29,696 nt of DNA from Phreatobacteraceae bacterium. Lineage in GTDB: Bacteria; Pseudomonadota; Alphaproteobacteria; Rhizobiales; JBDHTH01. Below, in pieces: positions 5,520-10,190 of this stretch. Location: assembly GCA_039808545.1 (NCBI GenBank), contig JBDHTH010000001.1, positions 1 through 29,696 on the forward strand. Reading direction: 5' to 3'. The position numbers and the translations under genes were made by a program. Below the pieces are notes generated by a model, which was not told the DNA's origin, did no database searches, and saw only the letters and a program-made list of their open reading frames with translations. How positions within the stretch are numbered: position 1 is the first letter of the stretch; the number at the start of each line of letters is the position of its first letter.

Positions 5520-5930
5520 TCAGCTCCTCAGCCTTGCGACCGGCGTGCCATATCCGATGAGGGTGCCGGGTTCCGCGAGCACCGCCTCGACGATGCCGTC
5601 GGCCGGTGCGGTCACGGGTACGTAAAGCGGCCCGACCTGCACGAGACCGACGATATCGCTCTTCGCGACCGCCTGGCCAACCGTCGCGAGCGGCTCCGAG
5701 CGCCAGGGATGGGCGGACAGAAATCTTCCCGCGATGCTCGCTCGGGCGAGGATCGCGGTCTCCTGCGCCGCGCCGGCCGGCAGCGGCTTCGGCAGGTCGG
5801 CTTTCGGCGCGGCGGCGGGCTCGACGACGAGCGTCAGGGCGCCGTCCGCGCCATCGATCTCGACGCGGCCGATGCCGCGCCGTTCCATGGCGACCGCGAG
5901 GGCGTCGATGTCCGCGACGGTGAATGCCAT
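5520..5930 (-). CDS. Biotin/lipoyl-attachment-domain (BCCP-like) protein lacking the biotinyl-lysine motif
   Basis: ATG at 5930, 2 nt after the upstream stop; 136 aa. BCCP-like layout: N-terminal helix, Ala/Pro linker, C-terminal G..V...V.AP.DG.V....G..V.YG.P.ARL. QVGPL replaces EAMKx. Confidence 0.82.
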   Translation of the reverse strand: MAFTVADIDALAVAMERRGIGRVEIDGADGALTLVVEPAAAPKADLPKPLPAGAAQETAILARASIAGRFLSAHPWRSEPLATVGQAVAKSDIVGLVQVGPLYVPVTAPADGIVEAVLAEPGTLIGYGTPVARLRS

Positions 5931-5932
5931 GC

Positions 5933-6904
5933 TCAATACTCCCGATAGCGTGCGATGGTGGCCGCGAGACGGCCCATATAGGCCTCGACCGCGTCGCGGG
6001 CCGCGAGCGCCTCGTCGTAGGAGGCTTCCGCGAAGCGCAGCGAGCTGCCGAGCCGGGCCTGGCCGAGGCGCCAGAGATCGGCCTCGATGACGGTGCCGAT
6101 CTTCGGATAGCCGCCGGAAGTCTGCGCGTCCCGCACCTGGATGATCGGCTGGCCGCTCGGCGGGATCTGGATCACGCCGGGCACGATGCCGTGCGAGCGT
6201 TTCTCGATCGGCTCCCGCGGCAGGACGGGCGAGCCTTCGAGGCGATAGCCATAGCGATTGCTCTGCGGCGTCACCTTCCAGGCGGTGCTCCAGAACAGCG
6301 AGCGGGCCGCCATGTCGAAGGCATGATACTCGCCGGCCGCGACGACCCGCAGGACCGTTGCCTCGGCCCGGTCCAAAGGCCGGGCCAGTGCGAATTCGGG
6401 CGGCTCGATGCCGAAATCCAGCAGGATCGCCCGCGCCGGCGGCGCGCCGACCGGCAGCCTGTCTCCAGCCCGAAGGACACGACCCTCCAGCCCGCCGAAC
6501 TCCCCGCGAAGCTGGGTGCTGCGCGAGCCGAGAACGGGCGGCACGTCGATGCCGCCGGCGACCGTCAGATAGACGAGCGCCCCGCGCGTGATCCGCCGCA
6601 CCGTGAGGACATCGCCCGTGCGCGCCGTTACGCGCCACCAGGGCAGCAACGGACGATCGCCGAGCAACGCCTCGGCGTCGCCGCCCGTCAACGCGAACTG
6701 CGTTTCGGCGAGAAAACGAAGGCGCAGCGGCGCGATCGCGATCTCGATGCCGGCCGCATCCTCCGAATTGCCGTTCAGGAGATTGCCGGCGCGCAGCGCG
6801 ACGTCGTCCATCGCACCCGCCGTCCCGACCCCGAAGCGGTACTGGCCGAGGCGGCCGAGGTCCTGCACGGTGGTCGGCCCCGATACGGCCAGCAGTTCGA
6901 TCAC
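5933..6904 (-). CDS. pxpC: PxpC-like / urea carboxylase CT (A/B) domain protein (biotin-dependent carboxyltransferase family)
   Basis: GTG start at 6904 overlaps the pxpB stop (GTGA). Motifs TTVQDLGR, GAMD, VLGSRST, SNRYGYRL and DAQTSGGYPK. Confidence 0.88.
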   Translation of the reverse strand: MIELLAVSGPTTVQDLGRLGQYRFGVGTAGAMDDVALRAGNLLNGNSEDAAGIEIAIAPLRLRFLAETQFALTGGDAEALLGDRPLLPWWRVTARTGDVLTVRRITRGALVYLTVAGGIDVPPVLGSRSTQLRGEFGGLEGRVLRAGDRLPVGAPPARAILLDFGIEPPEFALARPLDRAEATVLRVVAAGEYHAFDMAARSLFWSTAWKVTPQSNRYGYRLEGSPVLPREPIEKRSHGIVPGVIQIPPSGQPIIQVRDAQTSGGYPKIGTVIEADLWRLGQARLGSSLRFAEASYDEALAARDAVEAYMGRLAATIARYREY

Positions 6905-7557
6905 CGCACGACCCTTTCGACCGCGAAGCGGATCCGGTCGCCGGGCGCGAGCGCGGCCGGGATCGGTCGGTCGACGTCGAAGAAGCACCAGTCCGTATGC
7001 CCGATCGTGTGCCAGCCGCTCGGGCCCGGCGAGGCCGAAACGCCGGTCTGTGCGCCGCCGATCGATACGGCGCCGGCCGGAATGCGTTGCAGCGGCACCT
7101 TGCGACGCGGCACCGCGAGGCGCGGATCCATGCCGCCGAGATAGCAGTAGCCCGGATGGCTGCCGAGCGCGAAGACCGTGTAGAGCGGCGCGCTGTGCAG
7201 GCTGACGACATCGTCGACCGACAGGCCGCAATGCGCCGAGACATCGGCCAGCGAATTGCCCACCTCGCCGCCATAGGTCACCGGCAGCGCGACCTCGCGG
7301 CCCTCCAGAGGGGAGGCTTGCGCCGCGTGCCATGCCTCTTCGAGGAGTGCGAGGAAACGGTCGATGGCGCGTGGCGGGCGCGCGAAGAGAACCAGCAGGT
7401 TCGTCATCCCCGGCACCGCTTCGCTAACCCCCTCCCATGTCGCGATGCGGCGCGCCAGCGCCCAGATGCGCTGCTGCTGCGCGAGGTCGAAAGCGCCCGG
7501 CGCTTCGAAGAGGACCGCGGTCGTGGCGAGGAGGCTGATATGCGGGCGCTCCGCCAT
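6901..7557 (-). CDS. pxpB: PxpB-like / urea carboxylase CT (C/D) domain protein
   Basis: ATG at 7557, 1 nt after the accC stop. Motifs EAVPG, LPVTYGG, G..PGY.YLGG, PRR..P...IPAGAVSIGG.QTG and SPGPSGW..IG. Confidence 0.88.
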   Translation of the reverse strand: MAERPHISLLATTAVLFEAPGAFDLAQQQRIWALARRIATWEGVSEAVPGMTNLLVLFARPPRAIDRFLALLEEAWHAAQASPLEGREVALPVTYGGEVGNSLADVSAHCGLSVDDVVSLHSAPLYTVFALGSHPGYCYLGGMDPRLAVPRRKVPLQRIPAGAVSIGGAQTGVSASPGPSGWHTIGHTDWCFFDVDRPIPAALAPGDRIRFAVERVVR

Positions 7558-7558
7558 C

Positions 7559-8911: not shown

Positions 8912-8945
8912 CGACGCCCTCCGCTGCGCCTCCGCCGGCCGGCAG

Positions 8946-9398
8946 TCACGCCGCCGCCGCATCGAGGCCGATGCGGAGCAGCGGTTGCCCGGCTTCGACC
9001 TCGGAGGCGTTCTCGGCAAGGATTGCCAGCACCGTTCCGGCGGCCTCGGCCTCGATCCGGATGAAGGTCTTCATCGCTTCGACCACGCAGACCGCCTGCC
9101 CGGCCTCGACCCGCGCGCCGAGCTCCGTGAAGGGCGGCGCGCCGGGCGCCGGCGCGCGATGAAAGACGCCGTAGGTCGGGGCGCAGATCTCGATCTCCGC
9201 GGCGGCGCTCGCGGCGGCTGGCGCCGAGGTTGCCGGAGGCGCGGCGCGCTCGGCCGGCGGGGACGCGACTTCCGCGACGGCTGCGCCGGGCTGGCCCTTC
9301 ACTATGCGAATGCGCGTGCCGTTCTCGGTGATCTCCAGCTCGGCGATCCGCGACCGGGCCACGAGATCGAGCAGCTCTTCGATGCGCGTGAGATCCAC
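8946..9398 (-). CDS. accB: Biotin carboxyl carrier protein
   Basis: GTG start, Ala/Pro linker and EAMKT biotinylation motif (Lys codon at 9069-9071). Confidence 0.93.
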
Positions 9399-9431
9399 GT
9401 CGCAGGCCCTTTCTTTTCCGCCGCGATGCCC

Positions 9432-10190
9432 TTAAGGCGCCGGCTGCGTCTTGCGCTGCGCGAAGTTCAGGCCGCCGACCACCTGCTGGGTGGGCATGAC
9501 CTCCATGAAGGTCACGTTCATGCGGGCCGGCGATCCGACCGCGAAGGCGATGGCATTCGCGATATCCTCCGGCTGCAGCGAATCGTAGTCGTCGAAGAAG
9601 CGGCGCTTAGCCTCGTCGAGATCGCCGAGAAGCCGGCCGAACACCTCCGTCTCCACCCGCGCCGGCGACAGCTCGGTGACCCGCACCCGCGTGCCGTAGA
9701 GATCGACGCGGAGCTGCCGGCAGAGCGAATGCACGCCAGCCTTCGTCGCGTGATACACCGTGTTGCCGCCGCCGAAGGCGTAATGCCCCGCGATCGACGA
9801 GATGTTGACGATATGCCCACGGTCGCGCTTCGCCATGCCGGGCACGAACAGCCGCGTGAGATGCAGCACCGCGCGCAGGTTGACGTCGATCAGCGCATCG
9901 ACATCCTCCGGCGTCGTATCGAGGATGTTGCCGCGCCGCGACTGGCCCGCATTGTTGACGAGGACGTCGATCTCCACCGCCTCGGCGAGCCGCGCGACGC
10001 TCGCGAGGTCGCCGACATCGACCGCATGCGCGATGCAGCCCGTCTCGCGCGCCAGCGTCTCCAGGCGCGCGGCGTCGCGGGCGAGCGCGTGGACCTTCAG
10101 CCCCTCGGCCGCGAGCCGGCGGACCGTGGCGGCGCCGATGCCCGAGGAGGCGCCGGTGACGAGGGCCGTGCGATAGGCGGAAATCGTCAT
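9432..10190 (-). CDS. Short-chain dehydrogenase/reductase (YdfG-like NADP-dependent 3-hydroxy acid dehydrogenase group)
   Basis: TGASSGIG, NNAG and catalytic YHATK. Start is placed at MTISAYRTAL (10190) rather than the ORF-track start at 10259. Confidence 0.9.
   Translation of the reverse strand: MTISAYRTALVTGASSGIGAATVRRLAAEGLKVHALARDAARLETLARETGCIAHAVDVGDLASVARLAEAVEIDVLVNNAGQSRRGNILDTTPEDVDALIDVNLRAVLHLTRLFVPGMAKRDRGHIVNISSIAGHYAFGGGNTVYHATKAGVHSLCRQLRVDLYGTRVRVTELSPARVETEVFGRLLGDLDEAKRRFFDDYDSLQPEDIANAIAFAVGSPARMNVTFMEVMPTQQVVGGLNFAQRKTQPAP

Follow-up and report, generated by a model that had tools for sequence, protein, structure and literature searches.

Urea carboxylase, the biotin-dependent part of urea amidolyase (TIGR02712; K. 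lactis structures 3VA7 and 5I8I), is a single protein of 1200 aa, which combines an ATP-grasp biotin carboxylase (BC), a carboxyltransferase (CT) made of subdomains A-B and C-D (PF02626 and PF02682) and a biotin carboxyl carrier protein (BCCP) domain with a biotinyl lysine. The enzyme is independent of CoA and carboxylates a nitrogen prior to hydrolysis, in which its partner is an allophanate hydrolase of the amidase-signature family. LamA of Aspergillus nidulans, likewise a single fused eukaryotic chain, is a urea-carboxylase-like biotin protein that is needed, together with the PxpA homologue LamB, for the use of 2-pyrrolidinone. Homologous CT subunits form part of the PxpABC 5-oxoprolinase (YbgJ/YbgK/YbgL of E. 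coli, 5DUD; KipI/KipA/YcsF of B. subtilis), which needs no biotin and whose genes have no accBC neighbours. Two sets of PxpABC paralogues in P. putida (PP_2920-2 and PP_4575-7) are proven specific lactam hydrolases, acting on butyrolactam and 5-oxoproline (bioRxiv 10.1101/2021.12.09.472016), and ATP-coupled lactam opening is proven chemistry of the PxpABC family. Homologues of components of both systems are encoded, as separate chains, by a six-gene operon (positions 5520-10190) in a 29,696-nt stretch of contig JBDHTH010000001.1 of Phreatobacteraceae bacterium (GenBank assembly GCA_039808545.1). The whole of this stretch is referred to below as the window.

On balance, and with modest confidence, the operon is interpreted here as coding for the biotin half and for one carboxyl-transfer half of an enzyme of the PxpABC/urea amidolyase type, which would have several subunits, depend on biotin but not on CoA, and carboxylate and then hydrolyse an amide or lactam. 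The operon shares BC, both CT parts and a BCCP with a biotinyl lysine with urea carboxylase, and PxpB, PxpC and a PxpA encoded elsewhere in the window with 5-oxoprolinase. Unlike the fused urea carboxylase and LamA, its chains are separate, its predicted partner is a PxpA of the LamB/YcsF type rather than an amidase, it includes an extra BCCP paralogue that lacks the lysine (BCCPx), and its neighbours point to an amino-acid-like substrate. It differs from canonical PxpABC in its accBC genes and in its PxpC, which belongs to a separate, long-branched clade. Literature searches revealed no characterised biotin-dependent PxpABC or lactamase, and no reaction assigned to such clusters. Such sets of genes are already on record, whereas the enzyme is not, and the window carries a rearranged variant of the Bradyrhizobium type.

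Gene content of the operon

Pfam and NCBIfam searches, combined with open reading frame (ORF) calling guided by third-position GC content (GC3) and with inspection of start codons, identified genes for a short-chain dehydrogenase/reductase (SDR), AccB1, AccC1, PxpB1, PxpC1 and BCCPx, in this order, on the minus strand (Table 1). A preliminary description drawn from the nucleotide sequence had recognised the same six genes, with neither AccA/AccD nor pxpA inside the operon, and had listed the parts expected of a split urea carboxylase; all of these (BC, a biotinylatable BCCP and a PxpB/PxpC-type CT) are indeed present. No AccA/AccD, LamB_YcsF or amidase-signature protein was detected among the operon ORFs by Pfam or NCBIfam. 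The scan of large ORFs elsewhere in the window revealed no AccA/AccD, acyl-CoA CT, carboxyguanidine deiminase or amidase-type allophanate hydrolase, the last in agreement with what had been stated before.

The SDR and accB genes are separated by 33 nt, and accB overlaps accC by 36 nt, conditional on the start chosen for accC. Further downstream, accC and pxpB lie 1 nt apart, pxpB and pxpC share a GTGA overlap, and pxpC is followed by the BCCPx gene after 2 nt. As judged by this spacing, translational coupling, which had been claimed for the entire operon, is a fair description of the last four junctions (overlaps or gaps of 1-2 nt), whereas the SDR-accB junction is looser. Between 5200 and 10500, no promoter or terminator signal exceeded the level of shuffled sequences.

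The biotin carboxylase motifs are intact in AccC1, the glycine-rich loop being visible in the translation, and the protein scores above the cut-offs of the AccC equivalog TIGR00514 (642.8 versus 626.5) and of PRK08591 (682 bits versus 597). AccB1 passes the AccB equivalog TIGR00531 by the narrowest margin (115.3 versus 115.2), and its EAMK motif is invariant in 13 AccB orthologues from related clusters. PxpB1 is recognised by the PxpB equivalog TIGR00370 (179.8 bits, cut-off 145.55). PxpC1 passes the broader domain model TIGR00724 (307 versus 230.2) but falls short of the PxpC equivalog NF045499 (295.9 versus 500), and it matches E. coli PxpC (5DUD) with an E value of 1.5e-73 and urea carboxylase (3VA7) with 3.2e-37. 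Scores against TIGR02712, the equivalog model of the fused urea carboxylase, were 467.7 bits for AccC1, 160.6 for PxpC1 and 32.1 for AccB1, all far below its cut-off of 1303.85. For the SDR, the best NCBIfam match was YdfG at 160 bits, under the family cut-off of 411.

At the site of the EAMKM hairpin of BCCP, BCCPx reads VQVGPLYVPV and has no biotinyl lysine. An exhaustive HMMER search showed that at least 151 sequence clusters formed at 50% identity match BCCPx with E<=1e-10, and none of 154 relatives has a lysine at the aligned biotinyl column. The relatives have in common the motif [LVI]x[VI]Gx[LIV][LY]xPV, and upstream of it a His-Pro pair is nearly invariant. Comparison with a profile of the cluster AccB proteins gave an hhalign value of 99.6% over the full length, including the N-terminal segment. 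As far as sequence comparison can tell, BCCPx is thus a conserved family and a full-length paralogue of AccB. Its profile was unusable for estimating prevalence in 401 genomes of the phylum, as it matched the housekeeping AccB in almost every one of them; the seven best matches outside the genome under study (six at E<=1e-28) were the only ones both lysine-less and linked to the cluster.

A complex of PxpB1, PxpC1, the biotinoyl domain of AccB1 and BCCPx was modelled. BCCPx obtained a docking score of 0.85, as compared with 0.00 for the best of three controls; in calibration, a score this high was obtained for 58 of the 80 solved complexes used and for 2 of the 110 mismatched pairs, although the calibration is rough here owing to our own alignments and the use of four chains. 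In the model, BCCPx contacts only PxpC1, namely through its His-Pro motif (residues 74-77) and its lysine-less hairpin (98-105).

Two loci, L030 (7001-8325) and L054 (7917-9152), contain BCCPx and SDR genes beside genes for LysR and an aminotransferase and pxpBCA, and no accB or accC within ~7 kb. The presence of BCCPx beside pxpBCA in these loci ties it to the Pxp side of the system; there, either the biotin genes are located elsewhere, or BCCPx is able to act without them.

Conservation of the cluster and its link to PxpA

A first scan with PxpC1 identified 15 loci in alpha-, beta- and gammaproteobacteria with the gene order accB-accC-pxpB-pxpC-BCCPx-pxpA-SDR, preceded by a LysR gene and a divergent aminotransferase gene and followed by an ABC transporter. 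For a second scan, two peptide patterns typical of the clade were used; 346 species genomes matched, and the best 80 were examined. In this set, accB-accC adjoin pxpB-pxpC in 77 loci and are missing from three, and BCCPx is present in ~75. The hosts include Bradyrhizobium, Chelatococcus, Paraburkholderia, Caballeronia, Variovorax, Herbaspirillum, Marinomonas, Sphingomonas and others. Nearly all related loci carry, along with the cluster, an orthologue of the SDR (55-90% identity), and the SDR is a conserved partner, which agrees with the earlier description of it as dedicated. The gene set is widespread in soil proteobacteria and represents a large proteobacterial subfamily.

Two arrangements prevail. 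In ~55 of the 80 loci (type A), the order is that found in the first scan, with pxpA in the operon directly 3' of BCCPx. In 22 loci (type B), almost all of them from Bradyrhizobium, oppositely oriented rraA and lysR genes precede SDR-accB-accC-pxpB-pxpC-BCCPx, and a convergent block abc-pxpB2-pxpC2-pxpA lies directly beyond the operon in tail-to-tail orientation. Accordingly, pxpA is within the operon or immediately convergent with it in nearly all 80 loci. As judged by its gene order, the window is of type B, with the second block relocated to the other side of the operon (20502-22995). The preliminary description had treated the lack of pxpA as a defining feature, which these loci do not support. 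The closest relative, L001, keeps the six-gene operon with 80-90% protein identity.

In three genomes of the same order (L051, L053 and L056), a pair of the PxpB2/PxpC2 type lies inside a single operon, accB-accC-BCCPx-pxpB-pxpC-pxpA-aminotransferase, and the type to which copy 2 belongs is therefore biotin-linked as well. A further locus (L052; G096:C1:51000-69000) has aminotransferase-accB-accC-BCCPx-pxpA on one strand and pxpB-pxpC ~2.5 kb away on the other, beside an SDR gene and a gene for an RraA-like protein.

The accBC-linked proteins, PxpC1 among them, group together as one clade of the PxpC tree (support 96/84). This clade is sister to that of PxpC2, and the two together (joint support 99/98) are set apart from canonical PxpC by a long branch. 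The accBC-pxpBC linkage thus marks a single PxpC clade. Core residues common to PxpC, urea carboxylase and the biotin-linked clade are intact.

The PxpA proteins differ correspondingly. The motif H[MV]SFH[GA]A[LM]GN was found in all 18 biotin-linked PxpA sequences, as compared with HVKPHGALYN in all eight canonical ones. The PxpA of the window reads HVSFHAAMGN and lacks the canonical motif, Ser-Phe standing in place of Lys-Pro (Lys-to-Ser, S-type, as opposed to the canonical K-type). Elsewhere Y is replaced by G, C by L and Q by R; like the Lys-to-Ser change, these replacements are common to every PxpA from biotin-linked clusters and absent from the canonical proteins. Fixed differences beyond the motif occur at five or more positions. 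Over all the loci compared, AccC is encoded at the locus of 90 S-type PxpA proteins and missing at that of seven, and it is missing from all eight loci with a K-type PxpA. At the level of sequence, PxpA therefore co-varies with the biotin module. This, together with E. coli PxpC being a closer match to PxpC1 than urea carboxylase is, speaks against the earlier view that the system stands apart from chemistry of the 5-oxoprolinase type, while the accompanying guess of an amide or lactam nitrogen as the target fits the link to PxpA.

The assembly, a metagenome-assembled genome of 3.36 Mb and 69% completeness, contains five biotin carboxylases and three CT_A_B genes. As found by tblastn, an ordinary accB-accC pair is located on contig C180, to whose products AccC1 and AccB1 are 57% and 35% identical, respectively, and a canonical pxpA-pxpB-pxpC set with a K-type PxpA is located on contig C20; the PxpA of the window is the only S-type PxpA found in the assembly. 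Given these separate copies, those of the cluster are dedicated, and AccB1 and AccC1 are, by the same sequence comparisons, dedicated paralogues and not the housekeeping subunits of acetyl-CoA carboxylase (ACC).

Proposed function and alternative explanations

In the mechanism proposed, AccC1 would carboxylate the biotin on AccB1 with ATP and bicarbonate. Carboxybiotin would then swing into a heterodimer of PxpB1 and PxpC1, the homologue of the CT domain of urea carboxylase, and the carboxyl would pass to the amide nitrogen of a small lactam or amide. The S-type PxpA would hydrolyse the activated N-carboxy intermediate, CO2 would be lost from the product to leave an amino acid, and the conserved aminotransferase, SDR and RraA-like enzyme would process it. 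BCCPx is envisaged as a fixed, non-catalytic structural subunit seated on PxpC, which may bridge or tether PxpC to AccC through its AccB-like N-terminus. The PxpB2-PxpC2 pair probably draws on the same AccB1, AccC1, BCCPx and PxpA, in which case one biotin module would serve two specificity modules.

Several points weigh against this interpretation. The related loci are kin, picked via PxpC similarity, and their counts thus overstate independence and show a consistent pattern rather than independent events. The cluster family is known from its genes, and, since canonical PxpABC works without biotin, the need for BC and BCCP is read only from synteny. A comparison for PxpC residues that the biotin clade shares with two genuine urea carboxylases and that canonical PxpC lacks yielded only T73 and W278. 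The pxpA gene lies outside the operon in the window, and in L001 none is found within 9 kb on either side. The docking score of BCCPx may reflect solved BCCP-CT structures that the modelling program had learned. In A. baumannii, mumTLUHC joins LamB-like, 'allophanate hydrolase'-like and biotin-carboxylase-family genes, and growth with urea as the nitrogen source needed mumC but not the PxpC-, PxpB- and PxpA-like genes (PMC5050338). Lastly, the mycobacterial PxpC/PxpB homologues MSMEG_0435-0436 are inhibitory and sequester biotin, and their urea carboxylase activity was undetectable (PMC13012033).

As judged by their published descriptions, the mum genes and PA0493-PA0496 of P. aeruginosa, in which PA0494 is AccC-like and PA0493 AccB-like and the role is described as unknown (PMC6249292), resemble the operon in that a BC-family gene is joined to LamB or 'allophanate hydrolase subunit' genes. 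However, mum includes an NRAMP Mn transporter, and is linked to urea via mumC only, and the papers on both clusters describe neither a lysine-less BCCP nor a set of SDR and aminotransferase genes.

The urea phenotype bears on a different explanation, according to which AccB1, AccC1, PxpB1 and PxpC1 are a stand-alone split carboxylase for a small amide, for instance urea or guanidine, the carboxylated product is stable, PxpA is uninvolved, and another enzyme completes the pathway. This would account for the architecture, which mirrors that of urea carboxylase, and for the lack of pxpA in cis in the operon and in L001. It agrees as well with the support of urea use by the BC-family mumC while the LamB-like mumL is dispensable, and with a report of extra BC and BCCP genes, pxpB and pxpC, without pxpA, in L. 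pentosus. Nevertheless, it appears unlikely, as almost every one of the 80 loci has pxpA inside the cluster or abutting it, and as the active-site motif of PxpA changes together with the biotin module. Neither an amidase-type allophanate hydrolase nor a carboxyguanidine deiminase was seen among the window ORFs. By sequence, PxpC1 has its nearer match in E. coli PxpC, not in urea carboxylase, and the conserved aminotransferase, SDR and amino-acid-type transporter suggest a substrate with a carbon skeleton over urea.

It is less probable still, and we consider it improbable, that PxpB1, PxpC1 and BCCPx form a regulatory complex that holds biotinyl-BCCP or BC to throttle a biotin enzyme, with no carboxyl transfer. 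BCCPx has no biotinyl lysine and in this respect is like the BADC proteins of plants, which are BCCP paralogues without this residue that bind BC and inhibit ACC. The latter bind BC, whereas BCCPx was modelled on PxpC and sits in what appears to be a catabolic operon. In the cryo-EM structure of the mycobacterial LCC, MSMEG_0435-0436 bind two BCCP domains, with one biotin ordered in the pocket and 'positioned to participate in a carboxylation reaction', and structure and assay together point to biotin sequestration with lowered propionyl-CoA carboxylase activity (PNAS 2026; PMC13012033). The two bound BCCPs parallel the pair of AccB1 and BCCPx, but the BCCP there comes from an acyl-CoA carboxylase, no dedicated BC or BCCP is present, and the proteins are distant from PxpC1 (E = 2.9e-30). 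Moreover, a pure inhibitor would need neither a BC nor a biotinylatable carrier of its own in the operon, and LysR, transporter, aminotransferase and PxpA would be superfluous as its constant neighbours. The cluster holds no carboxyltransferase target to regulate, and the intact core residues of PxpC likewise argue against a purely regulatory role.

That AccB1 and AccC1 are half of a second acetyl- or acyl-CoA carboxylase, feeding the housekeeping AccA/AccD or another CoA-dependent CT beside unrelated pxp genes, would fit their scores above the NCBIfam ACC equivalog cut-offs (AccB1 barely), but is highly improbable given the accB-accC pair on C180, the window's lack of AccA/AccD or an acyl-CoA CT, the joining of accC, pxpB, pxpC and BCCPx by overlapping or 1-2-nt junctions, and the conservation of the linkage in three classes of proteobacteria. 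Because of the C180 pair, the option of a second fatty-acid ACC was discarded; the preliminary description had likewise deemed a second ACC improbable.

The carboxylation-hydrolysis enzyme that we favour can be extended, tentatively and with a greater chance of being wrong than right, to an undescribed class of biotin-dependent 'carboxylating amidase/lactamase'. BCCPx would be an obligatory scaffold between BC and PxpBC, the Lys-to-Ser PxpA would hydrolyse an N-carboxylated and not a phosphorylated intermediate, and in genomes of the Bradyrhizobium type one set of BC, BCCP, BCCPx and PxpA would serve two interchangeable PxpBC modules. Biotin-dependent enzymes are a small and well-charted set, and clusters that link BC/BCCP to PxpB/PxpC are annotated 'biotin-dependent carboxyltransferase'. 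If carboxylation-activated amide hydrolysis is borne out, the logic of urea amidolyase would extend to lactams, the binding of BCCP by the mycobacterial PxpC-like proteins would be explained, and BCCPx would be a bacterial counterpart of plant BADC with a structural instead of an inhibitory role. The dedicated biotinylatable carrier, the conserved pseudo-carrier predicted on PxpC and the PxpA with its signature lysine replaced make the system amenable to experiment.

Other genes in the window

Table 1. Genes of the operon and of the conserved neighbourhood in the window
Feature	Coordinates	Strand	Assignment
YdfG-like SDR oxidoreductase, 252 aa, 5'-most gene of the operon	9432-10190	-	adh_short, E 3.5e-47
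AccB1, dedicated biotin carboxyl carrier protein, 150 aa	8946-9398	-	EAMK biotinylation motif; TIGR00531
AccC1, dedicated biotin carboxylase, 450 aa	7559-8911	-	TIGR00514, PRK08591
PxpB1, CT subdomains C and D (CT_C_D), 218 aa	6901-7557	-	PF02682, E 4e-62
PxpC1, CT subdomains A and B (CT_A_B), 323 aa	5933-6904	-	PF02626, E 1.8e-86
BCCPx, full-length AccB paralogue without biotinyl lysine, 136 aa	5520-5930	-	Biotin_lipoyl, 27.5 bits
Divergent LysR-type regulator, likely start GTG 10353	10353-11267	+	HTH_1 and LysR_substrate
RraA-like aldolase/decarboxylase	11410-12081	+	PF03737, E 1.5e-43
Class I/II aminotransferase, ~400 aa	15078-16280	+	PF00155, E 4e-80
ABC importer (two permeases, binding protein, ATPase), 5' of the second pxp set	16535-20471	+	BPD_transp_1 (twice), SBP_bac_8, ABC_tran and TOBE_2
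PxpB2 (20502-21212) and PxpC2 (21209-22183), paralogous sister-clade pair	20502-22183	+	Pfam
PxpA (LamB/YcsF), S-type HVSFHAAMGN	22216-22995	+	PF03746, E 1.5e-91

The operon and the divergent LysR gene share an intergenic region of 162 bp (10191-10352), and a LysR gene borders the cluster in nearly all related loci. The RraA-like gene adjoins the cluster in the 22 loci of the Bradyrhizobium type and in several others, and orthologues of the aminotransferase (44-74% identity) border or close the cluster in most related loci. The ABC importer genes show synteny, at 71-88% identity, with a block that adjoins the cluster of B. cytisi (L004). Identity to the respective proteins of copy 1 is 44% for PxpB2 and 53% for PxpC2, and the plus-strand pxpB-pxpC-pxpA set to which they belong (20502-22995) includes the pxpA nearest to the operon, at a distance of ~12 kb.

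A second LysR gene and genes for a GFO/IDH/MocA oxidoreductase and another SDR are also found in the window beyond the operon. The latter two (13139-14923, minus strand) are kept beside two LysR genes in L001 (83-90% identity) and were not found in the wider family.

The block at 1-5359 (plus strand), which converges on the operon, consists of a gene of the isocitrate/isopropylmalate dehydrogenase family, truncated by the edge of the window, and genes for a GFO/IDH/MocA oxidoreductase, the TRAP transporter DctPQM and an SMP-30/gluconolactonase-like protein. This block was excluded from the system, as it is not conserved with the cluster in relatives. Genes for an amidohydrolase of the FGase family, a MATCAP/DUF1704-like metallopeptidase (PF08014, E = 3.6e-90) and a GshB/RimK-like ATP-grasp ligase lie at 23132-26915 (minus strand), with no obvious tie to the biotin system. 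At 27126-29695 (plus strand), an FAA-hydrolase-family gene is followed by a gene of the hydantoinase/oxoprolinase A type that runs past the end of the window and represents a second, unrelated kind of ATP-dependent lactam- or hydantoin-opening enzyme within the same 30 kb.

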